Of a DNA stretch of 28,616 nt, positions 1 to 16,894 are shown one piece after another. Numbering within the stretch: position 1 is the first letter of the stretch; each line of letters begins with the position of its first letter. This DNA comes from a virus (lineage: Duplodnaviria > Caudoviricetes), in IMG/VR virus record IMGVR_UViG_3300021519_000049, positions 1-28,616 of that record, one strand, 5' to 3'. Below the pieces are notes generated by a model that saw only the letters and a list, made by a program, of their open reading frames with translations, ran no database searches and was not told the origin of the DNA. The translations under genes and the position numbers were made by a program.

Positions 1-776
1 GATGCGCTTACACGCTCAGCGTTGTCAGACGCATTGAACGCTTCTTTCGTGTAGTCATCTGCGCTTGGGTCGTTTTGAGCGTGCGCTTCAGCAGCCATCA
101 AATGTGCTTCAGCAGCAGCGTTGTGTGCTTCGCCTTCGCTGAGCGTACGCGAGTTCTCTGAGCGGTCCGCATGATCGGTGCCGACCGCGTCGTGATACGC
201 GGAAAGCGCTTCGTGGCCCATTTGCGCAACTTCGTTGCGAGACATGCTCGTCGGGTCAGCGCCACCGCCAGAAGTCCACCGACCGTTTTCGTCACGTGCC
301 TGTTCTTTCAGCATGTCGTTCGCCTTGGCAACTTCTGCCCTTACCCCTGCTAACCACTCTTGTGCTTCTTGAAGTTTGCTCATCGTTAGTTCCTTTGAAA
401 GTAGAGACTTGGTAGTCACTCTATCAACTCTGCGCATGTTTGCTCTGGAGAGGTGATCCGTTGCCAAGTCGCGATGCATTGTTGCCTCGTGATTGTTTCC
501 TGCGTCTCCGTGTGCTTCCGCTGCTCTCATGTGCGCTACGGCTGCTTCTAGGTGGGTATTGATCTTGTTTTCGTGGCCCTTCGCCTTTTCGCTTGCTGCG
601 GTCTTGGCGTCTGCTCTTTCCGAAAGATAATCGGCTCCTGCGTTCCTGACCTTCGTATCCGTGCCACTTCCAAAACGACCACCAGAATCCCTCATGTGCT
701 CTGATTCTTCCCACAGTTTGAGCATTTGAAGTCTTTTCTGTAGCGCTGTAAGAAGTTGGCTTGGTGATTCCTGCAT
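1..776 (-). CDS. Tagged modular head-associated protein, 3'-truncated at the window edge (not in ORF track)
   Basis: Manual translation from ATG 776 is open to base 1: MQESPSQLLTALQKRLQMLKLWEESEHMRDSGGRFGSG...MLKEQARDENGRWTSGGG...HNAAAEAHLMAAEAH. It carries two copies of the tag motif plus His/Ala-rich helices. Confidence 0.85.
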   Translation of the reverse strand, partial: MQESPSQLLTALQKRLQMLKLWEESEHMRDSGGRFGSGTDTKVRNAGADYLSERADAKTAASEKAKGHENKINTHLEAAVAHMRAAEAHGDAGNNHEATMHRDLATDHLSRANMRRVDRVTTKSLLSKELTMSKLQEAQEWLAGVRAEVAKANDMLKEQARDENGRWTSGGGADPTSMSRNEVAQMGHEALSAYHDAVGTDHADRSENSRTLSEGEAHNAAAEAHLMAAEAHAQNDPSADDYTKEAFNASDNAERVSA

Positions 777-784
777 CAGGATCC

Positions 785-1147
785 CTATGAGCGGTTGGCC
801 CAGGGGACCAGGACCAGTGGCACACCGGCAGAGGTTGCTTCTCTTGCGTTCTCCTTGGAGTTGTCAATCAGAATGTCCACACCATTGTCGTCGCACCATT
901 TTGCCTTGCCCTTTGAACCGCTTCCATCAGGACTGGCGACAATCGTCATGCTATTCCAGCAGTTTGAGCATCCGAGTTCGTCGAGATACTGAGACTTTTT
1001 ATCCCAGATGTCTTTTGTTGCCGTGTCTTCTGCGGTTCCCGTGAGGACAACGACGCTATGACCAGCAGCCATCAGCGCTGCCATCAAGGACTGCATCTCT
1101 TTGGGGTTTGCGTCGATGGTGTTGTCTAAATCAACGGCGACTTTCAT
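785..1147 (-). CDS. Small HAD-superfamily phosphatase/nucleotidase-like protein
   Basis: MKVAVDLDNT (DxDxT motif I), LTG, a conserved K, and ILIDN (motif IV). SD-like GAAGAGG before ATG 1147, so the start is moved from the track's 1201. Confidence 0.75.
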   Translation of the reverse strand: MKVAVDLDNTIDANPKEMQSLMAALMAAGHSVVVLTGTAEDTATKDIWDKKSQYLDELGCSNCWNSMTIVASPDGSGSKGKAKWCDDNGVDILIDNSKENAREATSAGVPLVLVPWANRS

Positions 1148-1179
1148 AGATACCTCTTCGTTGCGCTGCGGGATGTTGA

Positions 1180-1596
1180 TTATGCTAGCGCATTTTGCCA
1201 ATAAGACTGATAGTTGCTAAGTATGTCGGACTCGGCGTCCTTCGCTCCAGGGAATAAATACGGGTACGCATGCGTGCCCTCCGGAAATCCCAATTCAACT
1301 CTTCGACCATAGATCATGTCTGGTGCAATCTTCGCTTCCCATCCCAAACTTTTCTTCAAAACGCTTCGGACCATTATTGACCCCTTCAGGTCGGTTGAAA
1401 TGCTCTGCGGCCTATCGAAGACGGTCTTTGGGGTTCCGGCGTCGTGTCGTGGTCCGAACCTTTGCTTGGCGTACTTTTCAATAGAGTGCGCTCCGAGTGC
1501 GGTTGCATTCATCGTGGCGTAGTCAACCCTGCTCAGGAGTTCTTCGATGGCCATATTGAATTCCTTGACTCCGGTGACTACGAGTTCAACCTTCAT
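1180..1596 (-). CDS. HK97 gp10-like putative neck/tail-completion protein
   Basis: TDLKGSI, YGRRVELG and AYPYLFPG match the HK97 gp10 family pattern (TG.L..SI / YA..VE.GT / A.PFL.PA). ATGA overlap with MuF. Confidence 0.7.
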   Translation of the reverse strand: MKVELVVTGVKEFNMAIEELLSRVDYATMNATALGAHSIEKYAKQRFGPRHDAGTPKTVFDRPQSISTDLKGSIMVRSVLKKSLGWEAKIAPDMIYGRRVELGFPEGTHAYPYLFPGAKDAESDILSNYQSYWQNALA

Positions 1597-2717
1597 TGGG
1601 GCTCCTCAGTTGCTGGCTCTTCGTCAACCTTAACCGCCTGTACATCTGGATTCATTTCGTCTGGTTGCTCAACCTTCACTACCGGTAAATAGGTGCATCG
1701 GCAGTTTGGATGTTGCGGGATTCTTGGATCTGGCAATGGGCTGACCTCGTACGGTCCTTCGGCCTCGTTCTCTTTGCAGTTGTTTCCAGGTGGCTTGTCA
1801 CAGGCATCATCTTCTGCCATCCAGTCAAACTCTTCGATGCCGTTCGCTATGTAGGTATCCATGGTCGCCTGCCCCTGCGCTCGCGAGGTCTCCGTTGCTG
1901 CGATCATCTCGGCGTGATCTGACACCAGGGCTTCTCCGGTCACGGGATCTGGAGTTGAAATGTTTTCAGCGATCTTCGAGGATGGCAGTCCATTGTCCAA
2001 TCCGTAGGCGAGTGCGTTGCCGAGTCGGTCAAGAATTGTGTCGAATATTCCTTTGATTGTTACGTCAGAGTCTTCAAGCAGGATTTCAAGCCCACCATCT
2101 CGAATGAGATTGGCTGCGGCTGATTCCCCTGGCCCCCAGATTTCCCAATCAATTTCCCTCTCGGCTGCGGCGATTGCCGTAGGGACCGCTGCCGCTGATC
2201 CAATCTGACTTGTAGCGCTATGCGCCCCACTCACATAAGCATCCGCCCAGAGATAGTTTAGGACCCTCCTGGCGTCTTCTGGAGAGATCCTGATGTTGGA
2301 CTTGACCGCTGCGTTGGCTATACGTGCTGATGAGATTTCAGAAGGCAATCGGTTCGCTGCGTTCCCTGAAGCCTTGTTGATGCTGGCCATCTCCGCTTCA
2401 TACTTCTTCTTGGCCTCTGCGATCGCTGCCGGTATCCCGCTGACTCCCCTTCGTAGCGCTTCTGCCATCTTTGGTTTGTAGTGGGCAACGATGGCTGCGT
2501 AGTAACGACGGTAGGGCTGCTTTGCCCATGCTGATTTCTTTTGCAGTCTGGCGATCTCTTTTTCGACGGCATCAATTTCATCCTGAATGATACTGCTGGC
2601 CGAAATGTAGAGAGAATCAACAAGAGACTTGTTGGCATCCTGCTGTTTTAGTTGCTCAAGGATTTCTTCTGGTATCTTCACTCCGGCTCTTGAAATGTTG
2701 TCCGTGATTTTGTTCAT
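1593..2717 (-). CDS. MuF / SPP1 gp7-family head morphogenesis (minor capsid) protein
   Basis: AEMIAATETSRAQ, W...D..C...C and the C-terminal PQHPNCRC hallmark. Confidence 0.92.
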   Translation of the reverse strand: MNKITDNISRAGVKIPEEILEQLKQQDANKSLVDSLYISASSIIQDEIDAVEKEIARLQKKSAWAKQPYRRYYAAIVAHYKPKMAEALRRGVSGIPAAIAEAKKKYEAEMASINKASGNAANRLPSEISSARIANAAVKSNIRISPEDARRVLNYLWADAYVSGAHSATSQIGSAAAVPTAIAAAEREIDWEIWGPGESAAANLIRDGGLEILLEDSDVTIKGIFDTILDRLGNALAYGLDNGLPSSKIAENISTPDPVTGEALVSDHAEMIAATETSRAQGQATMDTYIANGIEEFDWMAEDDACDKPPGNNCKENEAEGPYEVSPLPDPRIPQHPNCRCTYLPVVKVEQPDEMNPDVQAVKVDEEPATEEPQ

Positions 2718-5700
2718 TTGTTTATTCCCCCATCGTGGATAACAGACATCGCATCACGCCAGTCCCCACCGAGAACGCCGAAGTAACCCTTATCGGCAAT
2801 GTGCTGGCTATATTCATCCCAATTGTAAGTAACGCCAGTGTAGTTGTAGTTCTCAGGGTTTTTTAGCGTGTTGTCAATCACGTTCCCCTTTTGGTCAACG
2901 GCCCATGCGTGCAGGAAGCCAAGGCCAGGCATATCTTTCGACTCGCATACGCCTTCGCAGTAGTTGAGTTTCCCACCACGTCCGAAGTTGCTGTCCATGA
3001 CGATTCTGCTTGCGTTCTCGAAGCAGTTCTTCGGTTGCCCCATCGCAAATCCCTCTGGAAGTTTCTGCCCTTTGAACTGCGTACCATATTTGGCTACGTA
3101 GTCTCGTGCCCCAATGGGGTCGTGCGTGCCAAGAACAACCACGCTGCCCATGTCGATTCCACCACCGCTCCCAAATCGCCCGTGAGCATCTCGGGGGTGC
3201 TTCGACTCGTCCCATTCTTTAGCGAGGGACTTCGCTGCGCTATAAGCCTCAACAAAATAATGGTCGAAGGTCCCATATGGGGTTTGCGTGTCTGGCGGAT
3301 AAATGCGGGCTGAGTATTTTGCTCCTTCCGGCAGAACACTTTCCCCCATCTTCAGATCAGAAAGACTCTGCTTTTGCCAGGGAACTCCTGTATCGGTGAT
3401 GGACGGGAAGGTCATCGTGCCAACAACACCATTCGGGTTAAAGAAGCAAACGAGACACGACACTGGGCCTGAAACTTCGGTGGCTCTGTACTCATCGGCG
3501 ACGCCCCTGTCTGGGCTGCTTGAGGTGATGCCACCGAGTTCTATGCGAGTAGAAACAACATCATCGCTTGCAGTCTTTCCGTTGCCATAGCGGTCATAAA
3601 GTTCCTGTGCAGAATCGAATGAATCCCCACGCCAAACCTCGTTGAAGGGCAGTTTGGTTGACGAGGCCTCCTCCTGAATCGCATTCGCAAGTTTTTTGTA
3701 TTCTTCCACTTCTTTTGGTCCCAACCGATTCCCTTCAGAGTCTGTGGTCGGATCGACTCCCCTCAGGGCATCGTTGATGTTTGCAGACTCGTAGGCCCAT
3801 TCATCCCAACCATTTGGGGTTACCTTTCCGGAGGAGTCAACCAGAGCGTTCTGCTGATCACCACTACCTTCCCCAAATCTTCCGCCAGCCCCACGTGGAT
3901 GTTTTGATTCATCCCACGATTTGGCTGCGGCGTTTTCTTTGTTGTGGCTCATGATGTCTGCCAGTAGTTCTTGACCAACCTTGGTCTCCCATATTGGGTT
4001 TACCTCGTCTAGATCACCTGGGTTTGGTTGGTTCCTTGCGTCAACCTTCACACCAGGTCGTGCCTTGAGCATCTTTGCCAAACTCATATTGGCTATCTCT
4101 TTGCACTGATCGAGGTCCCACGTAGATGTTCCGCCATACCCTGCGTATGATTCGCCCATCGTGCGACCAATCATTTCGTGGTACGGGCGAGCGTCTGGGG
4201 TTGCCTCACTCGACACGCCAACGTGGTTTGAAACCGCCACCGTTGCGAGTAGGTACTGCAACGCTGTGGCTGCCCCAGGTGTTGTTTGGTTAGAACCAAG
4301 TTGAGCAACGTACAGGCTTTGCATCTCGCTTGCGTTCGGGTCTAGGTTGTTGTTGTCATACACCTTCTCAAAGTTCATGGCGGCACAAACATTTCCCTCT
4401 GCATCTTTTGCCACCAACACGTTCTCTCCATTGGCTGCGTCGTCCATGTAATCAACGCCTTCGACCAAACGGTGGGCCTGATGGTACATAGCAGCCTGAC
4501 CGTCTGGATTGGATATTGCGTTGCCTTGTTGGATAATTTCTTCGTAGCGTTCACTGATGGCGTCGGCTTGGTTGCCTGTGTCTTCACGTACTGCGTCTAG
4601 CGCCTTTGGCGTCGTGCGCTCGTCGAGAATCTCTACAGTGCCACCAGCCTCACGAAACTTCTTAACCTGTCCGCCAATAAACGCCAGGTGCTCTGGTTGG
4701 CTAGCGCCTTGGCTGCCTGCGGTAGGCCGTTCTCGCACCATTGTATCTCCACCACCGCTCCCAAATCGTCCGCCCGCACCACGAGGATGTTTGCTCTCGT
4801 CCCATTCTTTAGCGAGGGACTTCTCTGTCTTTTCTGTAATCTCAATATCGGAGGGCGACCACGCAAACCTTCCTCCCGTTTCACCATTTTCTTTTTCAAC
4901 GAGACCTTTGCCCATTATACCCTTGGCGGTATTTACGAGAGACATTTTATAGAGGGTTTCACGTCCAAACTTGTCATAGTTTTTTTGAATGTCGTCAACG
5001 ACAAAGGTGCTTCCCCTTGGAAGTATGACCTCGGCCTCCTTATCTCGATTATTTGGAAGCGCATTACTGCCTTCGGGGATTTTGATTTCAACCATTGATC
5101 TCTCGGTATTACCTGCGAAGACTTCGGCAATGTGATCTGTTAGAGATGTCGCAACATAACCCTTGTCGGTAAATGTTTCTCCAACCCCCAAACCCAGGTC
5201 AAATTTTACCCCCCTAAATGTAGTCATTGGCTCAGTGGTTATTGAGCGAGCCATTGCTTTGTCTATCTGGTCTATTCCCTGCATAACCCCATTGGATGCC
5301 TTATCACCCAGGTCGTTTCTCAGCGCCAAATTTATCGACTCGGCAGATCCGGACATGTGGGCCTGTTGCGTATAGGCTCTTAACGCATCTTCCTCAAAAG
5401 AGGTTAGGGGTGTTGTCATCCTGAATGAGGATTCAAACTTTTTCTGTGCTTCTTTGTTTGCCTGACCAACAATCTCAAAATACCTTCTTCTACCAGCCCT
5501 TTCGAGCCCTAGATCCGCCGTTGCGTTTAGTGTTCGCTGCCATTCCTCCACTCCATTACCGCTCCCAAACCTTCCGTGATCATCTCGTGGGTGCTTGGAT
5601 TCGTCGAAGTATTTAGCCATGGACTTTTCCATCTTTGAAATAGCAAGATCAACAAGCCATTTCGGTGCGAGCATGGGATCACCGTTTGATTGATTGAATG

Positions 5701-5788
5701 ATTCACGAAGTTTCTTTGCTTCTGGGAAACGGGCTTCACTCGTCAGTCGGGCGACCGCACGTGAGAAGTCAGGCTGCGTTATGTCCAT
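2714..5788 (-). CDS. Four-module tagged polyprotein: VIP2/C3-type ADP-ribosyltransferase + GNAT-like + second ART-like + papain/transglutaminase-like domain
   Basis: Four HPRxxxGRFG tags. ART1: YT...IN.ALR, FRG, YVATS, EAEVILPRG. GNAT: LYVAQLGS...PGAATAL...ARPYH..IG. ART2: INDALRG, WRG, TSSS, GESVLPEG. Module 4: CFENA, YCEG, HAW, IDNT. Confidence 0.85.
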   Translation of the reverse strand: MDITQPDFSRAVARLTSEARFPEAKKLRESFNQSNGDPMLAPKWLVDLAISKMEKSMAKYFDESKHPRDDHGRFGSGNGVEEWQRTLNATADLGLERAGRRRYFEIVGQANKEAQKKFESSFRMTTPLTSFEEDALRAYTQQAHMSGSAESINLALRNDLGDKASNGVMQGIDQIDKAMARSITTEPMTTFRGVKFDLGLGVGETFTDKGYVATSLTDHIAEVFAGNTERSMVEIKIPEGSNALPNNRDKEAEVILPRGSTFVVDDIQKNYDKFGRETLYKMSLVNTAKGIMGKGLVEKENGETGGRFAWSPSDIEITEKTEKSLAKEWDESKHPRGAGGRFGSGGGDTMVRERPTAGSQGASQPEHLAFIGGQVKKFREAGGTVEILDERTTPKALDAVREDTGNQADAISERYEEIIQQGNAISNPDGQAAMYHQAHRLVEGVDYMDDAANGENVLVAKDAEGNVCAAMNFEKVYDNNNLDPNASEMQSLYVAQLGSNQTTPGAATALQYLLATVAVSNHVGVSSEATPDARPYHEMIGRTMGESYAGYGGTSTWDLDQCKEIANMSLAKMLKARPGVKVDARNQPNPGDLDEVNPIWETKVGQELLADIMSHNKENAAAKSWDESKHPRGAGGRFGEGSGDQQNALVDSSGKVTPNGWDEWAYESANINDALRGVDPTTDSEGNRLGPKEVEEYKKLANAIQEEASSTKLPFNEVWRGDSFDSAQELYDRYGNGKTASDDVVSTRIELGGITSSSPDRGVADEYRATEVSGPVSCLVCFFNPNGVVGTMTFPSITDTGVPWQKQSLSDLKMGESVLPEGAKYSARIYPPDTQTPYGTFDHYFVEAYSAAKSLAKEWDESKHPRDAHGRFGSGGGIDMGSVVVLGTHDPIGARDYVAKYGTQFKGQKLPEGFAMGQPKNCFENASRIVMDSNFGRGGKLNYCEGVCESKDMPGLGFLHAWAVDQKGNVIDNTLKNPENYNYTGVTYNWDEYSQHIADKGYFGVLGGDWRDAMSVIHDGGINK
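3158..3233. repeat. Imperfect 76-bp direct repeat, copy 1 (encodes KSLAKEWDESKHPR...RFGSGGG)
   Basis: Exact blocks tccaccaccgctcccaaatcg (3158-3178 = 4748-4768) and ctcgtcccattctttagcgagggacttc (3206-3233 = 4796-4823); the offset of 1590 nt keeps the frame. Confidence 0.9.
4748..4823. repeat. Imperfect 76-bp direct repeat, copy 2
   Basis: Matches 3158-3233 with exact 21-bp and 28-bp blocks. Confidence 0.9.
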
Positions 5789-7800
5789 CAGTAGCCCTTC
5801 GCATTTCGGTCGTATGCTCCGTTGTTGTCCCGTATGTTAAGCGCTCCCCTGTTCAGAACAATCGTTGATCCGCTCTCATCCACCATCGCATCGTAACCCT
5901 TCGTAACCGCCCAAACGGAAAGCATGGAAGTTGTGTCGTAAGCCGCATCGGGGAAAGTTCCATCTTTGTCAACCAATGGTTTGAATGCGCCATCCTTGTT
6001 GTATTGGGATTCGTACTCTTTCATCACATCTGTATCTCTGATTTGGTTGAAAACTTTTGCGTTGGGATCGAGGACCATTTGATACATTCGACCAGGAACA
6101 GTTCCTCCGCTCTTATCATCAAGAGAGTTCCCGGACTGCTTCAGGTAACCCTGGGCAAGAACTATGCTTTCTGTGGTGTAAATCCCATTACCATTCACCC
6201 CACGACCAATGAACGGTGTCTCTGCGTTCAAAAAGTTGTTGTATCGCCTGACCATTGCCTCTTCCTTGCTTCCCGATCCTGCTATCAGGCCATCTGCTGA
6301 GATTCCACGATAGAGAACCTTTCCTCCATTTTCCTGTACATTTTCCTGTACAAACTTCTCCCAATCCTTTTCGGGAATGAGCGTTGGCTTTCCCAGAAAG
6401 CCCTGCTCTCGCATCACTTCACGCAATAGTGAGTCAGATATACCCCCACTAAGAACATTGACGTCTCCCTCTGGTTCACCTTGAGGCCAAGCACGCTGTT
6501 CGATTTTGTCCAAGACGTCAGCGGTGAAGTGATCGGCGTCGTGCTTTGGTTCACCCGAGTCTCCAGTTGTCCACCGTCCACGACTGTCACGTGGTTCGCT
6601 GGGGTCGTACTTGAGAAGGTTGATTATTTCCCTTTGAACGAGGGCGATCTCTGATTCAAGAACTTCTCTTGCTTCTTTATAGAGCGCATCAACGAGCGCC
6701 TTCTTTGCGTTGCCGAGATCGGCGATTTCATAACACTGTTCTGCCGTCCACCTTGAATCCAGATATTGGTCAACATCTCTTCCGATTGAGAGGTGGTAGT
6801 CAAGGCTCCGGTCGGTTGCTTCACTCTGCACTCCGACATCCAGCGCTGCGGCACGACTGGCCAACTCGTACTGAATAGCCGTTGCCGCACCTGGTTCGCT
6901 GAAGGTGCTGCCAAGGTAACCAACCTTGATGTATTCTGGATTTTCGTCCAGAGCATTTCCACTCAAACCCGTTTTGTTGTTGGTGACAACTTCGTAGCCG
7001 AGCGCAGCAACCACATTGTCGTGTGCGTCTTTGGCGAGTATGACGTTGTGACGAAATCCCGTATCCTCGGGCTGTACCCCTAACCCTGGTGCCCCAACGC
7101 TCATTCCAATAGCAGCCCATCCAATGTATTTCATTCCAAGTTCAAGATTCTGCCCTCTGGCGTATCCGGGCTTGTCCTCCATATCCCAACCGCCGTTTTG
7201 AACCATCTCCCGAACACCATTTTGAAAGTCTCTCGCTATCTTTTTCATTTGGGTTCTGTCTTCTTGGTTATTCGTTAGAACCTCTATGTGGTTGCCTGGC
7301 GTGTCAAAGAACTTGTTTGCTCTCCTGGCGATTGTGTCGAGATATTCCGGAGAATTTGCTCTCGCTCGCAGTCGCGTCTTCTCCTGAGTGCCACCACTGC
7401 CGAACCTGCCGTGCGAGTCCCGTGGCTGGTCAGGGCTGTACTTCTTTACGTTGTCGCCGAATAACTTTCGCCACATCTCCTTGCCGTCTGGCGTTTCCCA
7501 GAATGGGTCAACCTCGTCAGGATCTGCGAATGGTTCGGCTGGTTCCTTCTTGGACTTCTCAACGACGATTCCCGTCTCAAGAAATGCCTGGGCCTCCCTC
7601 TTGAGCGTTAGCGGTGCCGGGACCCAGAACGGAAGCCCCTCATCCCGCCTGAGAGCCGTTCTAAGCCCTTCAACGTCGCCCATCGGCAAAGCCCGCCAGA
7701 CCATGTAACTTTTCAGGTCAGTGACGCCTGGGAGATCCCACGTGCCAACCTTGATCCAGTCGGAGCCAAGAAGCGTTGAGTCGGGGTAAATCATTCTCAT
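5788..7800 (-). CDS. Tagged polyprotein: N-terminal small domain + GNAT-like module + ADP-ribosyltransferase-like module
   Basis: Tags KYSPDQPRDSHGRFGSGG and KYDPSEPRDSRGRWTTG. The GNAT-like segment is paralogous to the one in 2714-5788 (LGS...PGAATA.QY). C-terminal LYRG, GRGVNGNGIYTT, A.GY, GYDA and IVLNR resemble phage/MuF-associated ART folds. Confidence 0.75.
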   Translation of the reverse strand: MRMIYPDSTLLGSDWIKVGTWDLPGVTDLKSYMVWRALPMGDVEGLRTALRRDEGLPFWVPAPLTLKREAQAFLETGIVVEKSKKEPAEPFADPDEVDPFWETPDGKEMWRKLFGDNVKKYSPDQPRDSHGRFGSGGTQEKTRLRARANSPEYLDTIARRANKFFDTPGNHIEVLTNNQEDRTQMKKIARDFQNGVREMVQNGGWDMEDKPGYARGQNLELGMKYIGWAAIGMSVGAPGLGVQPEDTGFRHNVILAKDAHDNVVAALGYEVVTNNKTGLSGNALDENPEYIKVGYLGSTFSEPGAATAIQYELASRAAALDVGVQSEATDRSLDYHLSIGRDVDQYLDSRWTAEQCYEIADLGNAKKALVDALYKEAREVLESEIALVQREIINLLKYDPSEPRDSRGRWTTGDSGEPKHDADHFTADVLDKIEQRAWPQGEPEGDVNVLSGGISDSLLREVMREQGFLGKPTLIPEKDWEKFVQENVQENGGKVLYRGISADGLIAGSGSKEEAMVRRYNNFLNAETPFIGRGVNGNGIYTTESIVLAQGYLKQSGNSLDDKSGGTVPGRMYQMVLDPNAKVFNQIRDTDVMKEYESQYNKDGAFKPLVDKDGTFPDAAYDTTSMLSVWAVTKGYDAMVDESGSTIVLNRGALNIRDNNGAYDRNAKGY

Positions 7801-7821
7801 TATTTGGGCTCTCCGCTGTAT

Positions 7822-9084
7822 TTAGGCATGGAATCGGAGATCCTTGCGATGAACAAATTCCGAAATGTAGTCAACAATTTCGGTTTGCTTCACACCCCCG
7901 AGTACGACAACTTCTTTTTCTGAGAGACAACCGTTTCCGGTATATGGGGTTGAGAAAATATCACTAACGGGAACGTCAACCTTCAGCATGCTCCCGACCC
8001 CTCCAGTAACTTCATTGTCCATGAAATCCCTTGCCGTCCCAGGGTCGGTGGTAAAACTTGTCAAGGGTCGGAACCGTGCGTCCATCTGCTCACCAACATC
8101 TCCAAATCTTTGATCTACCCCCCTGAGAAGAGAAATCATGTCACCAGGGGTATATCCGAGATCTGCAAGTTTGCTCTGCGTGTCTTCGTACTGGGTTCGA
8201 AGAAAGTCCCTGTAAACACTTCCGTTCTCTTCGAGGTTGCTTTGAACCATGTCGGCGGTGCTCTGGGTGAGTGACCAGGGGTGGGTGTCCCTAACGCCAA
8301 ACTCCGATTCAGCAGATTCTTGAATAGCCAATGATTGTATATCGCTGTCATTGGATGATCTTGCCCAGGCCTGAATGAGGTTGCTCGCTGCTTCGTTGCG
8401 AAGTTCTTCAAGAAAGGCGGGATCTTTGATTGCCTCTGAAGATCGCATCCATCCAGCGTCTCTCAATTCCGCATCAGCAAAACTTGAGTAGGGAGAAGGA
8501 TCAATGTTATAGGAGTTTCTGGCATCTTCACTTGAAAGACCCCTCAACATGCTGGTTTCGGCGTCTTCAGCAATGTTCAAACCATTCACCCTGAGAGGAG
8601 AAATCATGTCACCATTCGTTCCTATCGTCAGGTATTGAAACGAACTGGCCATCCCTTCGAGTCCTCTATTCTCCGGGCTTTGCTCACTTACAAATAAGTC
8701 GCGCCTTGAATCCAATCCCGTGTCTCCACTGCCGTAATGAATATAACCATGCACGTGCACTGGAGAAGCAAGAAGCATGTCATTCGTCGACGACTTCATT
8801 TTGCTTGCGATTTCTTTGCTCACTTCGGACTTGAGTTGTCCTGCCCTTATGTGCGAAGGAATAAACTGTCCAAAAGTTTTGAGTGTTCCCAACTTTTCCT
8901 CTAAAACCTCTGGACTGCTGTAATCCGTTCCTCCGTGGGTAGCGAACCTGCCGTGAGAGTCTCTCGGGTGCTTGTCCTCTTCGAAGTACTTGGCGAGTCG
9001 CTCGATCTCCGCTGCTACGGCTGCGATCTCTTCTGTGACTGCTACCCGTGCTTCTTTGATGAGTTCAGCGAGTTGGTAGGACAT
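7822..9084 (-). CDS. Tagged ADP-ribosyltransferase (R-S-E clade)
   Basis: Tag KYFEEDKHPRDSHGRF; catalytic-like LLRG, PLTSFTTD...A..F and EKEVVV (ExE). Confidence 0.75.
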   Translation of the reverse strand: MSYQLAELIKEARVAVTEEIAAVAAEIERLAKYFEEDKHPRDSHGRFATHGGTDYSSPEVLEEKLGTLKTFGQFIPSHIRAGQLKSEVSKEIASKMKSSTNDMLLASPVHVHGYIHYGSGDTGLDSRRDLFVSEQSPENRGLEGMASSFQYLTIGTNGDMISPLRVNGLNIAEDAETSMLRGLSSEDARNSYNIDPSPYSSFADAELRDAGWMRSSEAIKDPAFLEELRNEAASNLIQAWARSSNDSDIQSLAIQESAESEFGVRDTHPWSLTQSTADMVQSNLEENGSVYRDFLRTQYEDTQSKLADLGYTPGDMISLLRGVDQRFGDVGEQMDARFRPLTSFTTDPGTARDFMDNEVTGGVGSMLKVDVPVSDIFSTPYTGNGCLSEKEVVVLGGVKQTEIVDYISEFVHRKDLRFHA

Positions 9085-9152
9085 GATAAATACAATCTAG
9101 TGCGTTCTTGCCCCGTGGATTGTTTCAATCCGCTTGCCGACTGCTGTCCTGT

Positions 9153-12100
9153 TCAGTCCAGGAACTTCCCCTGCGTCGCTTCTGCTGCGACCCTGGAGTA
9201 GCGGTCAAGTGCGTTGCCCTTTGGAGTTCCCGATCCCTCTGAACCTGGGGTGCTCTTGATTTTGTCCATCGCTGCTCGAATGTGCTTGTCGGCTTCGGAG
9301 TAGTTCTCTTTGTCGATGTGCTCTCTGGCTTTATCGAGATGGGCATGTGCTTCAGACAGAGAGGAAGATTTGCCACCACCTTTGCGCGGACCAGAACCAG
9401 GCCCACCCTTCCCCAGCATTTGCTTTTGTGATACCTGACCCGCTCGCTCTGCTGCTGCATTGGCTCGATTCAAGGCGTCTTGAGCGTCTAGTTCGGACTC
9501 AGCATCTCGCGTGGTTGCTTCTTCCTTCCCAGCGTTCACCGTCATCATTTCATCGAAGTGGTCTTGTGCTGAGTTTGCGTGATCTCTCGCCAGTGACTCG
9601 TGGTAACTGGCATTTCCCAATTCCGCAGCAGCGGCATGGGACTCAGCAGCATCGGCGTGTGACAGTAGAGCGGTAAAGTGAGCGCCCGAGGTATCCATTT
9701 GATTTCCAATCTCCTGAGAGTTGGCAGTCTGTGAATCCTTATTGGCAAACTGTGAGTTTTCGGTGGCATTATTGGCGGCTTCCCTGTACTTTGAACTGGA
9801 GTCGCCACCTTGAGCGTCTAGGCTGTTAGCGGCATCTTCTCCGTGACGAATTTGTACCGCATCCAGAGCATCTTCATGGTGAGCACCTGCGCTTATTGCG
9901 GCATCATAGGTGCCCCTAGCCTCTTCAAGCCCGTCACTATTCCCCGATGAACCCGTGCCACCACCAGAAGTCCAGCGACCGTGATCATCACGTGCTTGGT
10001 CCTTAGAGAGGAATCTCGCCAGTGGGGTGATTCCATTCTTGTCAGGAACTATGAGTTCCCTGAGGCTCAGTCCCTTTGCTGCGACCCCTTGAAACTCACG
10101 GTAAGCAGTAACGGAATCACTAACCGCTTCCTTGGGTGCTACGTGCGAAATGTTCTGACCCCACTCAGTGCCATAGTAACTCCTATCGATAACCGAGGTT
10201 GACTGCCTGCCGCCACGTCCAACCTGAACAATGTCATCTCTGCCATTTGTACGGATGATTCCGTAGTCACCCATCTTTGGTGGCCGGTCAACGGCATTAT
10301 CCTTGATTGACTGAACTGCGGCAACCCGTAACGCTTCCTTGCCTTTGTCATACGTATCTTCTTGGGCCTTACGGTCAGTGAACGCCTGCTTGATATCGCT
10401 CGGCTCAACCTTCACGCCTAAGTTACTAGTCATCTTCTCGGACAGACGCTGTGCCTGCCCATCGGTTAGTGGACGATCAACGCCTCGTTCTCCCGGACTA
10501 AACTCGGCTCTAAGGTATCTTGAATCAGCCGCCGAAAGATGAGAACTGTAACCGGTTCCAGCCGTACCAGCACGCTCACTCTGCGACGCTTCTGCCCTGC
10601 CACCACCAGAAGTCCACCGTCCACGCTCATCTCTTGCCTGGTCTTTTTCAATAGTCCCCTTGGTGATTCCAAAACTTTCATCAGCCTTCGCTTCAGATGC
10701 GCTGGCCTTTTCGGATGCTGCTTGGGCTGCGGTGCTGAGTTCTGCTGCCTTTGCTTCCTGGGTTGGCGTATAGGCGGTTTCTCTCGCTGTACCTGCGGCG
10801 TCGTGCGCTCGAGCGGCAGCGAGGTGATCGTTTGCGGCAGCGTCATAAAGGCTAATGGTTTTCTCTGATCCCGGTAGTCCCATTTCCTGTATTTGCATTG
10901 ACGTGTTGTGAAGTTCATCCAACTTGTCTGAGTGGAAACCGTTTTTGTCGTAGTGGTCTTGCGCCTGTTCCTTCATACTGAAAGACCTTTCAGTCCGGCT
11001 CATTGACTCACCGCCTGAAGTCCAGCGACCGTGATAATCCCTGGCTTCTTCCTTGCCTAGAAGGGAAGCAAGAAGGGTTTTGCCTTGGTCATCCCGCTCA
11101 AGAAGTTTGCGAAGTTTGGACACTGGGTCGCTGCCCAGGGATTTGTCAGCGTTGTTGTCATCGTCAAGTGACATTTGAATACGCATGTCAGTCTTCGTCC
11201 ACTTTTTCGGATCGTATGACCAGGGTCGCTCTTTCAGGTTGGAAACTGGTCCACGCTTGGCATTTTGTGCCTTCACTCGGTCGAGGATTGCCTGCATGTT
11301 CTCGTTGACGTTCACACCCTTCGCCTTGTCAGCCTTTTTGATTTGCCCGAATGATTGTCGTGGGATTCCTGCTTCGTCTACGTAGTTGTTCATATAGTCC
11401 AATGCCTCTCTTGCTGGCATATCAATCTTGATATACGACTCTTCAACCTTGGGGTCTTCGAGTGCCTGGGTAGCGAACGCTGCCCATCGGTGGTGGCCGT
11501 CGAGGATTGCGTTGTCATTCGAGATGAGGATTCTGTCCCCATCTGGCGTGTTGTCCTGCATGTGGAAGTCCAGGTTTTGGCTACGGTAAGCGTTCAAGAT
11601 TCCAGCGGACGTGCCGAGTGACATTTCACCCTGCGTTGGATGAAGTTCCAGAGGACTGATCTCTCCTCGCTGAACTCCGATTCCCTGATCCTGGAGGTGC
11701 TGCATGAAGCCAGCCATGTTCTCGTCACCGATCTGTGGCATTTCATTGCGAGGTATTCCAAGGTTTGGCTGGTCGAAGGGAGATGAAGCACCATCAAGAT
11801 GAACGGAAGAAAGGTTCGCATCAACCGGCATGTCAATCTTTTCCTTGTAGAAGGGTGCGTTGATCTCAGAGACGTGCTTCATCACGTCGTCAACCTTCGT
11901 GGGGTCCATTGTTATTTTGCCGTCTGCCTTGAGATGAGCGACGGTCGCAAGGGAATCCTTTACCTCTGGTGCGATAGAGGGGATGTTTCGACCTGGCTTG
12001 ATGTCTGGATCTTTCGTCGCTGTTCCCCCACTACCAAATCTCCCACGATCGTCACGTGCTTGGTCAGGGCTGAACTTCATCAGTTCGTCTAGTTGCTTTG

Positions 12101-12743
12101 CCACGATTACTTCCCGTTCTGGTCTCTCGGCAGCGGACTTCATTGATAACTTAGCATCAGCAACGTAATAACCCTCGGTCCTTGTCGCAAGGGTGTCGGT
12201 TACTCCTTGGAGTTTCATAAGATCGCTGGCCACGCTGTCCTTGTGCGCCTGCTCATCTTTTGATCCAGAGGACTGCGTTCCCCTTGAGTATGAGTCGGCC
12301 ATTCTTCCATAGGCGAAGGACGAATCTTTGTATTTGTTCGCACTTTCGTACATGAGATCGGTGGCTTTCTTCGTGTCGCCTGCCGTGAAAGCCTCTTTAC
12401 CTTTTTGGTTGAGAGAGAAGGCTTCTTCGTTTTGCGTTTTGATGTGGTTCATTGCCTCTCGGTTTACGGGACCACCACCCATGCGATTTGCCAGTTCATC
12501 GTGCTCTGATGTGAGTTTCTGGTGAAGTTCTCTCGTAACGCTTGGATTCTGCTTGCTGTCAACCTTGGTATCAACCATCGTTGTTGAGGAGCCAGCACCG
12601 AACTTGCCTCCATCACCCCTGGGGTGCTTTGCTTCGTCCCACTCGCCCTTCTGCGCATCCTTCGGGGGGTATGGGCCCGCCCATTCAAGGCTCAGGTCTG
12701 GCTTGTAGTCGGCGGGAAACTGCCCTTCTCGGGTGCTGGTCAT
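9153..12743 (-). CDS. Large tagged polyprotein with a ParB/Srx-like domain and His/Ala-rich helical modules
   Basis: Five tags plus KGGPGSGP. GIPRNEMPQI...LHPTQ...ILISNDNAILDGHHRWAA is a ParB/sulfiredoxin-fold signature. Contains repeated H..AA..H helices. Confidence 0.8.
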   Translation of the reverse strand: MTSTREGQFPADYKPDLSLEWAGPYPPKDAQKGEWDEAKHPRGDGGKFGAGSSTTMVDTKVDSKQNPSVTRELHQKLTSEHDELANRMGGGPVNREAMNHIKTQNEEAFSLNQKGKEAFTAGDTKKATDLMYESANKYKDSSFAYGRMADSYSRGTQSSGSKDEQAHKDSVASDLMKLQGVTDTLATRTEGYYVADAKLSMKSAAERPEREVIVAKQLDELMKFSPDQARDDRGRFGSGGTATKDPDIKPGRNIPSIAPEVKDSLATVAHLKADGKITMDPTKVDDVMKHVSEINAPFYKEKIDMPVDANLSSVHLDGASSPFDQPNLGIPRNEMPQIGDENMAGFMQHLQDQGIGVQRGEISPLELHPTQGEMSLGTSAGILNAYRSQNLDFHMQDNTPDGDRILISNDNAILDGHHRWAAFATQALEDPKVEESYIKIDMPAREALDYMNNYVDEAGIPRQSFGQIKKADKAKGVNVNENMQAILDRVKAQNAKRGPVSNLKERPWSYDPKKWTKTDMRIQMSLDDDNNADKSLGSDPVSKLRKLLERDDQGKTLLASLLGKEEARDYHGRWTSGGESMSRTERSFSMKEQAQDHYDKNGFHSDKLDELHNTSMQIQEMGLPGSEKTISLYDAAANDHLAAARAHDAAGTARETAYTPTQEAKAAELSTAAQAASEKASASEAKADESFGITKGTIEKDQARDERGRWTSGGGRAEASQSERAGTAGTGYSSHLSAADSRYLRAEFSPGERGVDRPLTDGQAQRLSEKMTSNLGVKVEPSDIKQAFTDRKAQEDTYDKGKEALRVAAVQSIKDNAVDRPPKMGDYGIIRTNGRDDIVQVGRGGRQSTSVIDRSYYGTEWGQNISHVAPKEAVSDSVTAYREFQGVAAKGLSLRELIVPDKNGITPLARFLSKDQARDDHGRWTSGGGTGSSGNSDGLEEARGTYDAAISAGAHHEDALDAVQIRHGEDAANSLDAQGGDSSSKYREAANNATENSQFANKDSQTANSQEIGNQMDTSGAHFTALLSHADAAESHAAAAELGNASYHESLARDHANSAQDHFDEMMTVNAGKEEATTRDAESELDAQDALNRANAAAERAGQVSQKQMLGKGGPGSGPRKGGGKSSSLSEAHAHLDKAREHIDKENYSEADKHIRAAMDKIKSTPGSEGSGTPKGNALDRYSRVAAEATQGKFLD

Positions 12744-13363
12744 GCCCCCACCGCCCGAAGATAGACATGATTGTATTTCTCATCCCAAGTGTATCCGTTG
12801 TCGTCCTTAGCGCCATATTGCACACGATCGATGACAAACTGGCCAGCCACAACAGACTCTTGCTCTGAGTCATTTACATATGAGTTCCCTCTACCCGCCA
12901 GGTCAAAGGCCAGAGTTCCAGCCGGTAAATGAAGGATAGTGCCGCTGGTGCCGCCATATCCGGCTGCGTATGGATCTGCAGTAAAGACGTCAGGAGAGAA
13001 GGAACTGGGAGGGAGATTGACCACGTCTCCCTCTCTACCGACAGAATCTACCCGCAGACCTCGATACAACTCAGTCGAAGAAGGCTTCCCCTCGAACTCA
13101 ACGGCTCGGGCCATGATGTCTATATTCTCGGGGGAGACTTTACCCTCGATTGGTCCAATCTCGTTCCACTGCGCCAAGGCTGCATTTACCTGCGCCTCCG
13201 TGGGCGGGACCCTCGAACCCGCAGAGGAGCCAGCACCGAACTTGCCCCCAGCGCCACGAGGATGCTTTGATTCGTCGAACTCCTTCTCAACTGCGAGTTT
13301 TCTTGCGAGATTGCTTTGACCGGTTTCGTCCCGTTCGAGAAGTTTTTGAAGAGGGTTCGTCAT
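12740..13363 (-). CDS. Tagged single-domain ADP-ribosyltransferase (R-S-E clade)
   Basis: Tag KEFDESKHPRGAGGKFGAG; LYRG, SSFSPD...A..Y and EQESVV (ExE). Start set at ATG 13363, behind a leaderless-type promoter. Confidence 0.8.
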   Translation of the reverse strand: MTNPLQKLLERDETGQSNLARKLAVEKEFDESKHPRGAGGKFGAGSSAGSRVPPTEAQVNAALAQWNEIGPIEGKVSPENIDIMARAVEFEGKPSSTELYRGLRVDSVGREGDVVNLPPSSFSPDVFTADPYAAGYGGTSGTILHLPAGTLAFDLAGRGNSYVNDSEQESVVAGQFVIDRVQYGAKDDNGYTWDEKYNHVYLRAVGA

Positions 13364-13379
13364 GGTTTTCAAAATAGCA
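13364..13379 (-). promoter_or_regulatory. Putative extended -10 leaderless promoter
   Basis: TG-C-TATTTT, then 7 nt, then ATG 13363; no SD present. Confidence 0.5.
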
Positions 13380-13405
13380 CGAGAAGGAGAAGACGCACCT
13401 TGGCG

Positions 13406-14986
13406 TCAGACCCCCACCTGCTTGCGCACTTGCTCTAGCAGTCCGTATGTGGCCCGCAACTTCTCTAGTTCAGGAGCGATCATCTCTTGAACGATTGATT
13501 TCGCTGCTTCCTCTTCGGCTACCGGTTGGTCAAGACCTGCGGCAATGTCATCTGGATCTTCGAGAGGATACGACTCGTCTGTTTGGTCAGCATGTTGCAC
13601 CACGATTTTGTCACCGGCCTGCAACGGCATTGGTAGTCGCACGTATCCGGTTGGTGAAATGAACGCCGTGTCGCCATCTGCTTTTTGCGCTGAGTCAAGT
13701 ATTGAGTTGACCCAAGACTTCGCTGGTTCGCCACCCCATGCTGCCCAGGCAACACGCCCAGGACTCGGGTAGCCATCCTCGCCAGGGCTCCAGCCCTTTC
13801 CCTGGTCGTCAACTGAATGACGAGCAAGGAAACTTGCCATACGCTTGATGATCTCAAGAGATACCGGACGTCCTGCTGCTAGATCGCCAGCACGTCCCCG
13901 TCCAACTGCCGTGAACCCATCTCCGGCTTCTCCGTTTTTGATCCATTCAACTGCTCGTTGTGCTTCCTCTTGTACGCCCTTTGGTGGCGTGAAGGAATTT
14001 GAGTCCTTGCTGACTGGCTTGTAGTAGTCGCCACCACGACGCTTGTATTCCTGGACTACCCATCCATTGGCGACGGCTGAAGGGTAGACGTCAAACTTGC
14101 TCTTAGCCTCACGAATTACCCTGTCGTAAAGTTCCTGGTCGCTTGGTTCGCCCTTCCTGTTGCTGATTATTTTGTCCCACTTCCCCTTCTCTGCCTTCTC
14201 GCCAGGCGCTCGTCCGGCAGTGGCTCCCGTGGCGTCCATGTGGCGAAGTTGACAGAATCCTTCAGGGTTATCAATGTGCTTACCGGCGATAGCAACGCAC
14301 GCATCGAAGTCACCCTCTTCGCCCCAGTTGATTTGGCCGTCGGCTCCTTCGTTGTACCAGTCAATCAATCCCTGTGCGTCGCCTTTTTCGATCATCGATT
14401 CAAGTGACTTTGTTGCGGTTGCCGTGATCAGTCTGTCAGGAATGGCATCGATCATATCGGCTGCCTCGTACAACCTTCGTTGAAGTTCATCGGTGTGACG
14501 GGGCTTGATGTTGGAGAAAGCCGCTGGACTCTCTGCTGCGTCCCTTAGATATCTTGCGGCCTTGTCGTAGTGCTCTCTGGTGTCGGAGGCGAGGTACTTC
14601 TTGTCTGGGTTTTCACGAAGCACGTTTTCACTTGCGTACTTAAGACTTTGTCTAGCCTCGGCAATAGCATCCTTCGTTATGATCACATCCTGAACCTGTC
14701 CGTTTTGCGCTCTCTCGGGGTGGTGGTGTGAATCAACAAGCATTGACAAATGGCTTGCTCTCTCAACCGTTTTACCCAGATGGCTGAGGATATCTCCATG
14801 TGCTGAGGCCCATCGTCCCTTTGCGTCCCTGACCTGATCGTCTTTGAACTTGAGAAGCAGTCCTTCACCCAATTTGTTGAGAAGATTTAGGTTGCCTGCT
14901 CGTCCCGCTTTGTTGAGTTCTTCTGCTGGCTCGGATGGGATTTCCTTGAACTCGAAATCCCTCCATGAATTACGGTCAATGCGGGC
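13406..14986 (-). CDS. In-frame C-terminal extension of the portal gene (beyond TAG 14987-14989) carrying a tag and three small phage head-associated domains
   Basis: Same frame as the portal and open immediately after the TAG (ARIDRNSWRDFEFKEIP...). No SD before the track's TTG start at 14872. Domains: INWGEEGDFDACV..FCQLRH; LYDRV...PSAVANGW..EYKRRGG; VGRGRA..IKRMASFLARH..AWAAWGG. Confidence 0.75.
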   Translation of the reverse strand, partial: ARIDRNSWRDFEFKEIPSEPAEELNKAGRAGNLNLLNKLGEGLLLKFKDDQVRDAKGRWASAHGDILSHLGKTVERASHLSMLVDSHHHPERAQNGQVQDVIITKDAIAEARQSLKYASENVLRENPDKKYLASDTREHYDKAARYLRDAAESPAAFSNIKPRHTDELQRRLYEAADMIDAIPDRLITATATKSLESMIEKGDAQGLIDWYNEGADGQINWGEEGDFDACVAIAGKHIDNPEGFCQLRHMDATGATAGRAPGEKAEKGKWDKIISNRKGEPSDQELYDRVIREAKSKFDVYPSAVANGWVVQEYKRRGGDYYKPVSKDSNSFTPPKGVQEEAQRAVEWIKNGEAGDGFTAVGRGRAGDLAAGRPVSLEIIKRMASFLARHSVDDQGKGWSPGEDGYPSPGRVAWAAWGGEPAKSWVNSILDSAQKADGDTAFISPTGYVRLPMPLQAGDKIVVQHADQTDESYPLEDPDDIAAGLDQPVAEEEAAKSIVQEMIAPELEKLRATYGLLEQVRKQVGV

Positions 14987-16894
14987 CTAGGCGAACTTTC
15001 CGAACGCTGCGAGTTCTTTCTCGGCTGCGATGTCTGGTTGCTTTGGGTCGTCTTTGGGTTTGACGCTTGTTTTTGTGCCTGAAGTCTTAGTATTTCGATC
15101 ACCCTCGGCGCTAGCACTTCCGCTAGCAGATCCAGATCCAGCAGGTTCATTAGAGTCTCCCTTGCCTCCAGTATTTCCTCCGCTCTTGACTGGCTTGTTG
15201 GGTTCATCGGTTACTCCTGCGTTCGGTCCCTGTGGCGCTACTGGCGTCGGTTGTCCGGCACCTGCAACTTGTTGTTGCTGTTGAGCAAATGTACCAGCAA
15301 GAAAGACAACTCCCGCACCTGCGGTAACACCCAACTGGTCTGCCTCTTGTTCCTCCATGAGAGGGATTCCACGCTCGGCTCGGATTTCGTTCCTCGTTCG
15401 GATGCCTGCGCTCACGTCAATCTGGTCAGCCTGCGCCCTGGTGATGTCGTCTTGTTCGTTTCCTCCACCAGTTGCTGTCATCGTCAACTCGGGTCCAACG
15501 CCAAGGAATCTACGTGCGAGGTCGTTGATGCAGTCGATGAGGAAGTTCTTCAGTGCGTCAGTTGCGTAGGCTTCGTACTGGTCGGACTGTCCTTTTTCGT
15601 GACCGCCACCAAGAGAGGACTTCGGGCCGATGCCCAGCATGTTTTGAGGGATTCCAAACTTTGCGCCGATTTGTTGAACCAGCCATTGGTCGTAGGTATT
15701 CTTGTAAGCCTCGTCAACGCTTCGTAGTTGATCTGCCTTCATTCCTGGACGAAGGAGCATGAAGTTCTGTCGTCGCTGGGTTTGTCCAGCGAACTGATCG
15801 TTGTAGGTGCGCTCGTAGTAAGCCAACTGCTCCGGCGTCCATGATTCTGTACCGTCTGTCGTGACAACCATCTTGGGCGTTACGCCATTGGAGTATTCAG
15901 CGTGAAGCCATGCTTGTCGTTCCATGTAGATCGTGGCGATGTTGATGCACTCTTCGACCTGTGAGTATCCATAGATTGAGGATGGGCGTGGGCGTCGAAT
16001 GTAGTACGCCAATTGATCTTCGGTGTACGCATCTGGGACAGTGCCGTCTTCCGCAACATTCTCTGCTTGGAACTCTCCACGTGGGAAGCCATAAAGGATT
16101 TGCTGATACGCAGGACTTGGTGGGCGAGGAATGAATCCTTGGTTGTCCAAAAGAATCTTGATCGTGCTGGTGTCAATGGTGGAGAGACTCATCAGTTCGC
16201 CCTTGAGGTTGTACTCCGGAGATACTGCGATGCCGTCGTAGACCAGGTGAGAGTAGATGATGTCAGTCAACCATTGGCTGAACGTGAAGCCCATTCGCTT
16301 GTCTGGATACTCGAAGAACTCTTGAACCCTCTGAAGTTCGTCTCCATACTTCTCTCGTGCGAGCGCTGCGGCTTTGGCGCTATTGGTGACGTTCTCTTCA
16401 ACCATGATTTGCTGAATGATTTGAGGACTGAAGCCCCATGACCACTCAAGACCAACGATCGCATCCTGTACAATTTGGATACAGCGTTGTACGATGTCAA
16501 CGTCTTCTGCCAGTCCCTTCAGTACAGACCAAGGAACCCTTCTGTCAATGAGGTTGATGTTGGCTGCGATGAGGTACTGCGTGCGTCGTGCGAGTGTTCG
16601 GCCACTTGGAGTAAGTGGATCAATCGCATCCGGGAATAGTGGATTTGCTGGGCCGAATCCTGAGTCAAAGATTCCCTCTGGTCTTGGCAGTGGCTGGAAG
16701 CCTGCGCCTGGTCCGACCTGGTTGAAGGGGGAAGATGGATTCACCTGTGGAACCGCATACGTTGCGCCAGATGACATCTGTGAAGCCATTGCTACCGCAG
16801 GACTCATGGCCTTTTCGATTCCCGCTTCGATAGCGGCATTCATATCGGCTTGTCGGCGGTCTCGTCGCTTGCCCAGAATCGGTATTGCCATCAT
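14987..16894 (-). CDS. Portal protein (HK97-like), ending at an in-frame TAG
   Basis: Directly follows the terminase; motifs IDTSTIK, YGYSQVE, IGAKFGIP and GIRTRNEIRAERG; SD AAGAGG. Confidence 0.9.
   Translation of the reverse strand: MMAIPILGKRRDRRQADMNAAIEAGIEKAMSPAVAMASQMSSGATYAVPQVNPSSPFNQVGPGAGFQPLPRPEGIFDSGFGPANPLFPDAIDPLTPSGRTLARRTQYLIAANINLIDRRVPWSVLKGLAEDVDIVQRCIQIVQDAIVGLEWSWGFSPQIIQQIMVEENVTNSAKAAALAREKYGDELQRVQEFFEYPDKRMGFTFSQWLTDIIYSHLVYDGIAVSPEYNLKGELMSLSTIDTSTIKILLDNQGFIPRPPSPAYQQILYGFPRGEFQAENVAEDGTVPDAYTEDQLAYYIRRPRPSSIYGYSQVEECINIATIYMERQAWLHAEYSNGVTPKMVVTTDGTESWTPEQLAYYERTYNDQFAGQTQRRQNFMLLRPGMKADQLRSVDEAYKNTYDQWLVQQIGAKFGIPQNMLGIGPKSSLGGGHEKGQSDQYEAYATDALKNFLIDCINDLARRFLGVGPELTMTATGGGNEQDDITRAQADQIDVSAGIRTRNEIRAERGIPLMEEQEADQLGVTAGAGVVFLAGTFAQQQQQVAGAGQPTPVAPQGPNAGVTDEPNKPVKSGGNTGGKGDSNEPAGSGSASGSASAEGDRNTKTSGTKTSVKPKDDPKQPDIAAEKELAAFGKFA

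Follow-up and report, generated by a model that had tools for sequence, protein, structure and literature searches.

A short repeated peptide heading exchangeable modules in putative head-cargo polyproteins of a tailed phage

Polyvalent proteins join ADP-ribosyltransferase (ART), GNAT, ParB-like, PBECR, LPD, 2H, zeta kinase and RelA/SpoT domains and have been proposed to be packaged and injected; they and ARTs fused to MuF or portal have been described in phage head modules, and some polyvalent proteins carry assemblin-like prohead peptidases (PMC5512222; PMC9503650). In T4, a ten-residue propeptide that gp21 removes serves to package Alt and internal proteins (PMC9026906); MuF toxins are fused C-terminally, and small open reading frames (ORFs) follow most of them (PMC5576092); SPP1 gp7 binds the portal (PMC6316719); and P1 DarA/Hdf, which are internal to the head, touch both capsid and DNA and are no longer there once the DNA has been ejected (PMC12810830); all of these papers are cited here from their accessible text. 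In this study, we analysed a 28,616-nucleotide stretch of Caudoviricetes DNA (IMG/VR record IMGVR_UViG_3300021519_000049, positions 1 to 28,616; hereafter the window), in which a short peptide tag is repeated through a 12-kb cassette between the portal and MuF genes and in the ORFs around it. To our knowledge, T4 and T7 apart, little is established about how internal head proteins are selected for ejection.

Our preferred model, to which as a whole we assign a probability of about 0.45, is that the cassette encodes swappable head-module polyproteins with the repeat unit leader, Lys, tag, Gly-rich linker and module. The prohead protease would cut after Lys so that each module would start with the tag; the retained tag would grip the packaged DNA, and the enzymes, once freed, would exit the capsid together with the genome and modify host targets early in infection.

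The window is like the polyvalent proteins in that ORFs A and B (described below) hold at least two disparate activities and lie in a portal-terminase packaging context. It differs in that processing of polyvalent proteins is mainly ascribed to zincin metallopeptidases (36%, common, not obligatory; PMC5512222), whereas their HExxH motif was not found in nine head ORFs of the window. The accessible text of the polyvalent-protein accounts holds neither a repeated module-heading peptide nor a link between boundary residue and prohead protease, although their supplements might (PMC5512222; PMC9503650). With the capsid-targeting sequence (CTS) system of T4 the locus shares a short peptide common to divergent head cargo, ART cargo, and processing by a prohead protease and ejection into the host (both predicted here). 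The CTS, however, is N-terminal, upstream of the cut and removed, and T4 cargo consists of separate genes, in a system confined to T4 relatives (PMC9026906). The tag studied here comes after the predicted P1 residue or after the start Met, and the cargo would keep it; it recurs along polyproteins and is found with different protease families and in many phyla. T4 gp21 cuts after Glu, whereas relatives of the window encode XkdF and Lys precedes the window tags. As with MuF toxins, variable enzymatic domains are tied to the portal/MuF module (PMC5576092), and the relatives L004, P0003 and P0010 fuse tagged modules to MuF, in P0003 and P0010 as C-terminal toxin-to-MuF fusions. The window MuF, in contrast, is short (374 aa) and ends soon after its domain, with neither a tag nor a C-terminal toxin domain; the enzymes are encoded by separate ORFs upstream of it, with no small immunity-like ORFs behind them. 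P1 DarA/Hdf also differ, being a structured capsid-bound complex for which the accessible text reports no shared short tag (PMC12810830).

Our literature search (motif strings, XkdF/DUF2213 cut sites, CTS-like motifs, processed portal polyproteins, Gilgamesh, MuF/ejection) gave no description of the tag, with most subscription papers and supplements outside its reach. The locus would work like polyvalent, head-packaged, protease-processed cargo (putative), and the new part would be a retained N-terminal tag, cross-phylum and protease-independent, that marks exchange points. As a short cross-phylum peptide of cultured phages, the tag allows direct tests of ejection selection, lets injected effectors (domains without a family match among them) be listed from sequence, and could serve as a protein-delivery tag.

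The tag and the modules behind it

The tag has the consensus [WFY]x4-5(H/Q)PRDxxG[RK][FW]. A first-pass annotation of the window had claimed about 16 copies in seven ORFs, and a six-frame scan with R[DG]xxG[RK][FW] found 16, all on the minus strand. The count that it gave for each ORF was exact: two in 1-776, four in 2714-5788, two in 5788-7800, one in 7822-9084, five in 9153-12743, one in 12740-13372 and one in the portal extension. The same pattern was absent from the ten untagged ORFs tested, which included the portal core, MuF, neck and terminase. Residue shuffles of all 17 ORFs (7191 aa) gave a mean of 0.026 tags and a maximum of 2 in 2000 shuffles; the pattern was derived from the tags themselves, and a looser one adds a single out-of-frame chance match only. 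The tag set is real, well beyond chance. Tag copies sharing a residue share its codon in 311 of 914 cases (34%), about the 32% expected from codon usage, and the tag is thus conserved at the protein level; a DNA-level repeat as the origin of the likeness was rejected, since silent positions are no more alike than chance.

Neither Pfam nor NCBIfam has a family covering the tag, and profile searches of the PDB with it gave no significant match, the two non-significant ones having E values of 0.33 and 0.39. A non-significant PDB match holds an exact PRDxxGRF in the baseplate hub gp113 of phage 7-7-1 (L416 3903-5267; PDB 9rku), where QPRDxxGRF plus Gly occupies residues 83-98 without an upstream aromatic.

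Behind the 16 tags lie five ART modules, two GNAT modules, one papain-like and one ParB-like module (both weak) and seven modules without family match. The ART-like and GNAT-like modules named in the first-pass annotation were all supported (five of five and two of two); its papain-like and ParB-like assignments stand weakly. ORF A (2714..5788, 1024 aa; all genes described here are on the minus strand) carries tags at 5567-5587, 4763-4783, 3875-3895 and 3173-3193, which head the ART A1, the GNAT A2, the ART A3 and the papain/transglutaminase-like A4. ORF B (5788..7800) has a recurrent N-terminal spacer domain, then a tag (7402-7422) with the GNAT B1 and another (6571-6591) with the ART-PolyVal-like B2. 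Two single-tag ORFs are built alike from a leader, Lys, the tag and an R-S-E ART-like module: ORF C (7822..9084; tag 8944-8964), with a type 2 leader shared with the MuF N-terminus, and ORF E (12740..13372; tag 13238-13258), with a type 1 leader. ORF D (9153..12743, 1196 aa) has tags at 12600-12620, 12036-12056, 11022-11042, 10614-10634 and 9972-9992; its D2 is ParB/SerK-like (weak), and its D1, D3, D4 and D5 gave no family match. An ORF truncated by the contig end (1..776) holds two tags (672-692 and 276-296) with Ala/His-rich modules that gave no family match, and in the portal extension a tag (core 14810-14830) heads module F1 (14402..14830), which has no family match. ORFs A-E adjoin or overlap each other, with no space for a small immunity gene.

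A1 matches PF03496 (1e-17), and hhalign, using profiles built from loci gathered in this analysis, linked A3, C1 and E1 to the A1 family (99.5%, 99.0% and 96.5%). All four combine the profile match with the R...S-x-S/T...E motif, and their assignment as putative ARTs of the R-S-E clade is supported; a PDB search with C1 gave nothing useful. B2 resembles ART-PolyVal (Atlas 0.92, 173/256 features; PF18760). A structure model of A2 (pLDDT 68) matched GNAT in Foldseek (E 6e-5, prob 1.0), and B1 is a paralogue of A2 (blastp 1e-21), so that a GNAT fold is predicted for both. In A4, Cys, His and Asp are invariant in seven aligned rows, and its top VIA matches are all papain-like, with weak Z of 4.3-4.7 (rmsd 3.0-3.7, 83-107 residues aligned); Foldseek gave no match for A4. 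In D2, DGHH is invariant in 12 rows, ParBc_2 matches 2 of 12 members (best E 0.007, weak), and a SerK match (E 0.012) ranks below Protein A matches that are likely chance. The cargo behind this tag in relatives includes zeta-type kinase, PI3/PI4-kinase-like, SNF2, LPD3 and LPD13 domains. In L154/L155 (1401-10136), a protein of more than 2700 aa has nine Lys-preceded tags and seven copies of a C1-type ART module.

The residue before the tag and module exchange

Lys precedes all 16 window tags, within three residues of the aromatic in the 12 long-form tags (background 0.17) and at -4 in the four short-form tags. For comparison across phages, identical contexts were merged into 329 locus groups with 448 distinct tags, the groups being related to one another, and proteases were detected with five protease profiles. 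K or R lay up to four residues before the tag aromatic in 25 of 27 XkdF or S78 groups vs 10 of 48 DUF2213 groups, and D or N in 44 of 48 DUF2213 groups vs 12 of 27 XkdF or S78 groups. Many phage records label relatives of DUF2213 as head maturation proteases. In 41 of 43 groups, the residue at the C-terminal boundary of DUF2213 itself is also the one found before the tag (mean 26.9 and maximum 35 in 20,000 permutations; five further groups were left out because this residue could not be read); it is D in 32 groups, N in 8 and R in 3, and the N and R cases match before the tag in 8/8 and 3/3. Two further presumed protease groups have their tags in Ala-Leu-Ala (4 groups) and Thr-Ala-Ala (3 groups) contexts, and in 25 groups the tag comes right after the start Met, with a protease detected in 2 of these vs 49 of 86 other groups.

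HK97-type proteases cut after Lys, background for which our literature search gave no confirming passage. From the covariation, cleavage by the prohead protease after Lys is likely, and specificities can be predicted for little-studied prohead proteases: XkdF after Lys, and DUF2213 after Asp, Asn or Arg. Because the upstream residue tracks protease type and tags also follow the start Met, the data suggest that the tag sits at the predicted mature N-terminus whatever the protease. The tag always closely follows the predicted P1 residue, as it would if it were the P' half of the protease recognition site, but this tag accompanies at least five protease groups that differ in predicted P1, it also follows Met, and protease and scaffold have many Lys-Ser/Ala sites without a tag; this role is very improbable.

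Several points weigh against predicted processing. The groups are related and the DUF2213 tree needs only three label changes, which leaves few independent events; the R rule is looser and was set after viewing; L079 and L333 are misses, L320 lacks the Lys, and in L051 (XkdF) Asp stands directly before the tags with Lys 8-10 residues further up. The window contig stops before its own protease gene, which would lie beyond the contig end. In favour of processing, in relatives the XkdF protease comes after the position equivalent to ORF 1-776, and L001 and L004 have the same neck gene and small conserved gene followed by an XkdF prohead protease (PF14550, 2e-12). Also in favour, Lys in the context [AEVTLM]-K-[SAG] shows a modest enrichment in head ORFs (41/303 Lys vs 12/179, p 0.02) and in the protease and scaffold of L004, which carry no tag (15/78 vs 6/108, p 0.005), but the Lys-motif patterns were picked post hoc, and shuffles equalled the observed count in 31-43 of 1000.

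Upstream of the Lys and tag, at least four leader or spacer peptides recur whichever module comes next (window ORFs A-E and MuF, L001, L004, L006, P0002-P0010), one of them also opening MuF. This suggests that these separate leaders are better packaging candidates than the tag, and we give about an even chance that the leaders, or fusion to portal or MuF, are the packaging address. Other motifs start modules after Lys, namely GGPGSG (ORF D, ~9407), DWxxW[DN] and GHDFRGNQW (window ~9407; L001 7603-9390; L006 12141-12752; L007 5684-7393), and may be alternative tags. In L019, L057, L078 and L085, where Ala-Leu-Ala precedes the tags, the gene between portal and capsid (the presumed protease) has no Pfam match.

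Modules are swapped tag to tag, even inside one lake population. P0002 matches ORF A at 88% over residues 41-336 only, and P0003 at 92% over residues 623-876 only, both spans running from tag to tag. In lake run X1, a joint (3853-5564, depth 9.1) starts immediately behind tag 1 and ends immediately behind tag 3 of ORF A, so that a co-occurring variant skips the A1+A2 segment (3854..5563, 570 codons, tag to tag) in frame; depth is halved over 4201-5460 (10.8-12 vs 18-42 elsewhere). Among the loose ends listed for this run, 4 of 12 fall at tags or their Lys (10 more exist).

Exchange at tags would also be seen if the proteins acted uncut as ordinary polyvalent proteins and the tag were a linker whose coding sequence served as a crossover point for shuffling; the N4 virion RNA polymerase and some plasmid polyvalent proteins are delivered unprocessed, according to the accessible text of PMC5512222. 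Such a linker is hard to reconcile with silent positions no more alike than chance, with an upstream residue that tracks protease type and with tags at the very N-terminus of single-module genes, and we regard it as improbable. The proposal of the first-pass annotation that polyproteins are cut into tagged modules is well supported, if indirectly, by the protease-matched residue and the tag-to-tag exchange.

Distribution and candidate roles of the tag

Pattern scans of IMG/VR returned at least 131 and at least 148 stretches (estimated totals 640 and 370), and a species-genome scan returned 128 stretches with the tag pattern, whose titles span Firmicutes, Proteobacteria, Actinobacteria, Cyanobacteria/Melainabacteria, Planctomycetes, Bacteroidetes, Elusimicrobia and others (bins may be mislabelled). 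Head genes lie near the tag in 92 of the 111 groups that span 12 kb or more: local profiles found portal, MuF or protease in 77, and the nearest ORFs (up to four) of the other 34 added 15. Of the remaining 19, in which no head gene was detected, 12 were viewed together with L299; some lie near integrases or phage genes, and some stand alone in a chromosome and carry PBECR, LPD3 or NlpC/CHAP domains. The tag is therefore head-biased and not head-exclusive. Reading of the sequences confirmed the tag in the cultured phage proteins Sixama gp73 (a Gordonia phage), Gilgamesh gp48 and the Orimi01 portal, and in a Helicobacter prophage portal; one of five matches examined, in Pseudomonas phage Astolliot, was spurious and has no tag, and tblastn of cultured phages with QPRD-type tags found nothing further.

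Tagged genes outside head modules, beside integrases or alone in chromosomes with PBECR, LPD3, AbiEii or NlpC/CHAP domains, are what would be expected if the tag had no virion role and worked inside host cells once the modules are delivered or expressed, guiding them to nucleic acid or a conserved protein of the host; a tag shared across phyla also calls for a partner shared across phyla. The 92 groups in head modules and the very different substrates of the cargo enzymes speak against this, and a host-side role appears rather improbable.

The first-pass annotation read the tag as a head-targeting or ejection signal. As a capsid-targeting signal, the tag would bind a prohead component (scaffold, portal or MuF) and cutting would merely free the modules. 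Stand-alone genes in head modules with the tag right after Met (e.g. L014, L035, L037) have no other shared address, and MuF was found near 32 of 36 DUF2213 loci and 5 of 5 XkdF loci, which favour targeting. However, the T4 CTS lies ahead of its cut and is lost (PMC9026906, accessible text), whereas here the predicted cut lies ahead of the tag; modules already fused to the portal still have the tag; the portals it accompanies are of HK97, SPP1, Mu and lambda types, and no MuF was detected in 5 of 6 long S78 groups; and separate leaders recur upstream of Lys. The head-targeting half of that reading is thus weakened, and we judge targeting unlikely, though first among the rivals of the preferred model, followed by the host-side role and then the uncut linker.

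An ejection signal remains our best guess for the tag. Since it is kept in portal fusions and MuF was not detected in most long S78 groups, there is no obvious universal phage-protein partner; retention on the cargo, persistence in portal fusions and co-occurrence with unrelated portals, often without detected MuF, argue that the tag acts after release on a common partner, most simply the packaged DNA. Arg/Gly/aromatic peptides are known to bind nucleic acid. DNA as the partner is a tentative choice; presence of the tagged proteins in virions and their delivery are probable. Weighing against the preferred model, the single structure model assigns no secondary structure to the tag region (pLDDT 46-62), the tag lacks a strongly basic character, most modules are acidic, and 19 of the 111 long groups have no detected head gene. 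A bolder generalization, which we consider doubtful, is that the tag is a protease-independent ejection handle, so that any domain starting with it, by a cut or a start Met, would leave the head with the genome; phages across many phyla could then reshuffle injected effectors, and the residue before the tag would report protease specificity.

Several tagged loci deserve separate mention. Gilgamesh gp48 of Streptomyces phage Gilgamesh (L013 79-13953; 4624 aa) follows the portal-MuF genes and has one tag near its N-terminus behind LEVK, a motif that is repeated in the Gilgamesh gp52 protease. In a Desulfovibrio chromosomal gene (L331 7902-10798), the tag and NlpC/CHAP are followed by several small paralogues, one of them DUF3828, an arrangement that resembles an amidase-immunity locus. 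L345, L308 and L299 are actinobacterial integrated elements in which small genes with N-terminal tags, and variant tags, lie beside an integrase, outside head modules; in L299 the tag heads an AbiEii domain.

Portal frame and neighbouring genes

The minus-strand gene order in the window is small and large terminase, portal, the 12-kb cassette, MuF and a neck-like gene. The portal core (14987..16894) is HK97-like (Phage_portal, PF04860, 2e-19), and its ORF stops at a TAG at 14987-14989, a site where five relatives have Lys. Two lake runs, the ones covering 14989, read T instead of A there (25.5x and 6x; contigs X1 and X2); run X1 is possibly the source sample and run X2 comes from another study. 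The TAG is an assembly error and the extension a true portal fusion: given the Lys of the relatives and the T of the lake runs, the portal is a single 1162-codon frame (13406-16894), and a recoded or read-through TAG was rejected on the same observations. The C-terminal extension (13406..14986) consists of the tagged insert of ~150 aa, then the small head-associated domains phrog_6439, DUF5872 and phrog_2859; the insert was found in the window only and is absent from the portals of the five relatives. A search for a cultured relative close to the portal found none, the best match being 27%.

About 12 kb separates the portal core from MuF, in line with the earlier claim of more than 10 kb; in L001/L004 the distance is 3-4 kb. 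MuF itself (1593..2717; PF04233 3e-5, phrog_115 3e-17, TIGR01641 5e-8), an SPP1 gp7-like minor head protein, begins with a type 2 leader, and a metagenome scan with it returned only the window. Beyond it lie a neck/tail-completion-like gene (1180..1596; phrog_5 1e-4) and a small conserved gene (785..1201), HAD-like by eye and syntenic in L001/L004. On the other side of the portal, the large terminase is encoded as separate ATPase and nuclease ORFs (16911-17753 and 17705-18595); the lake contigs have no indel there, and L002, L004, L006 and L007 are likewise split, with extra DNA between the halves. A TET/JBP-like dioxygenase gene (19134-20761) adjoins a glycosyltransferase-like gene and a ParB-like gene, and this region is likely a DNA-modification cassette.

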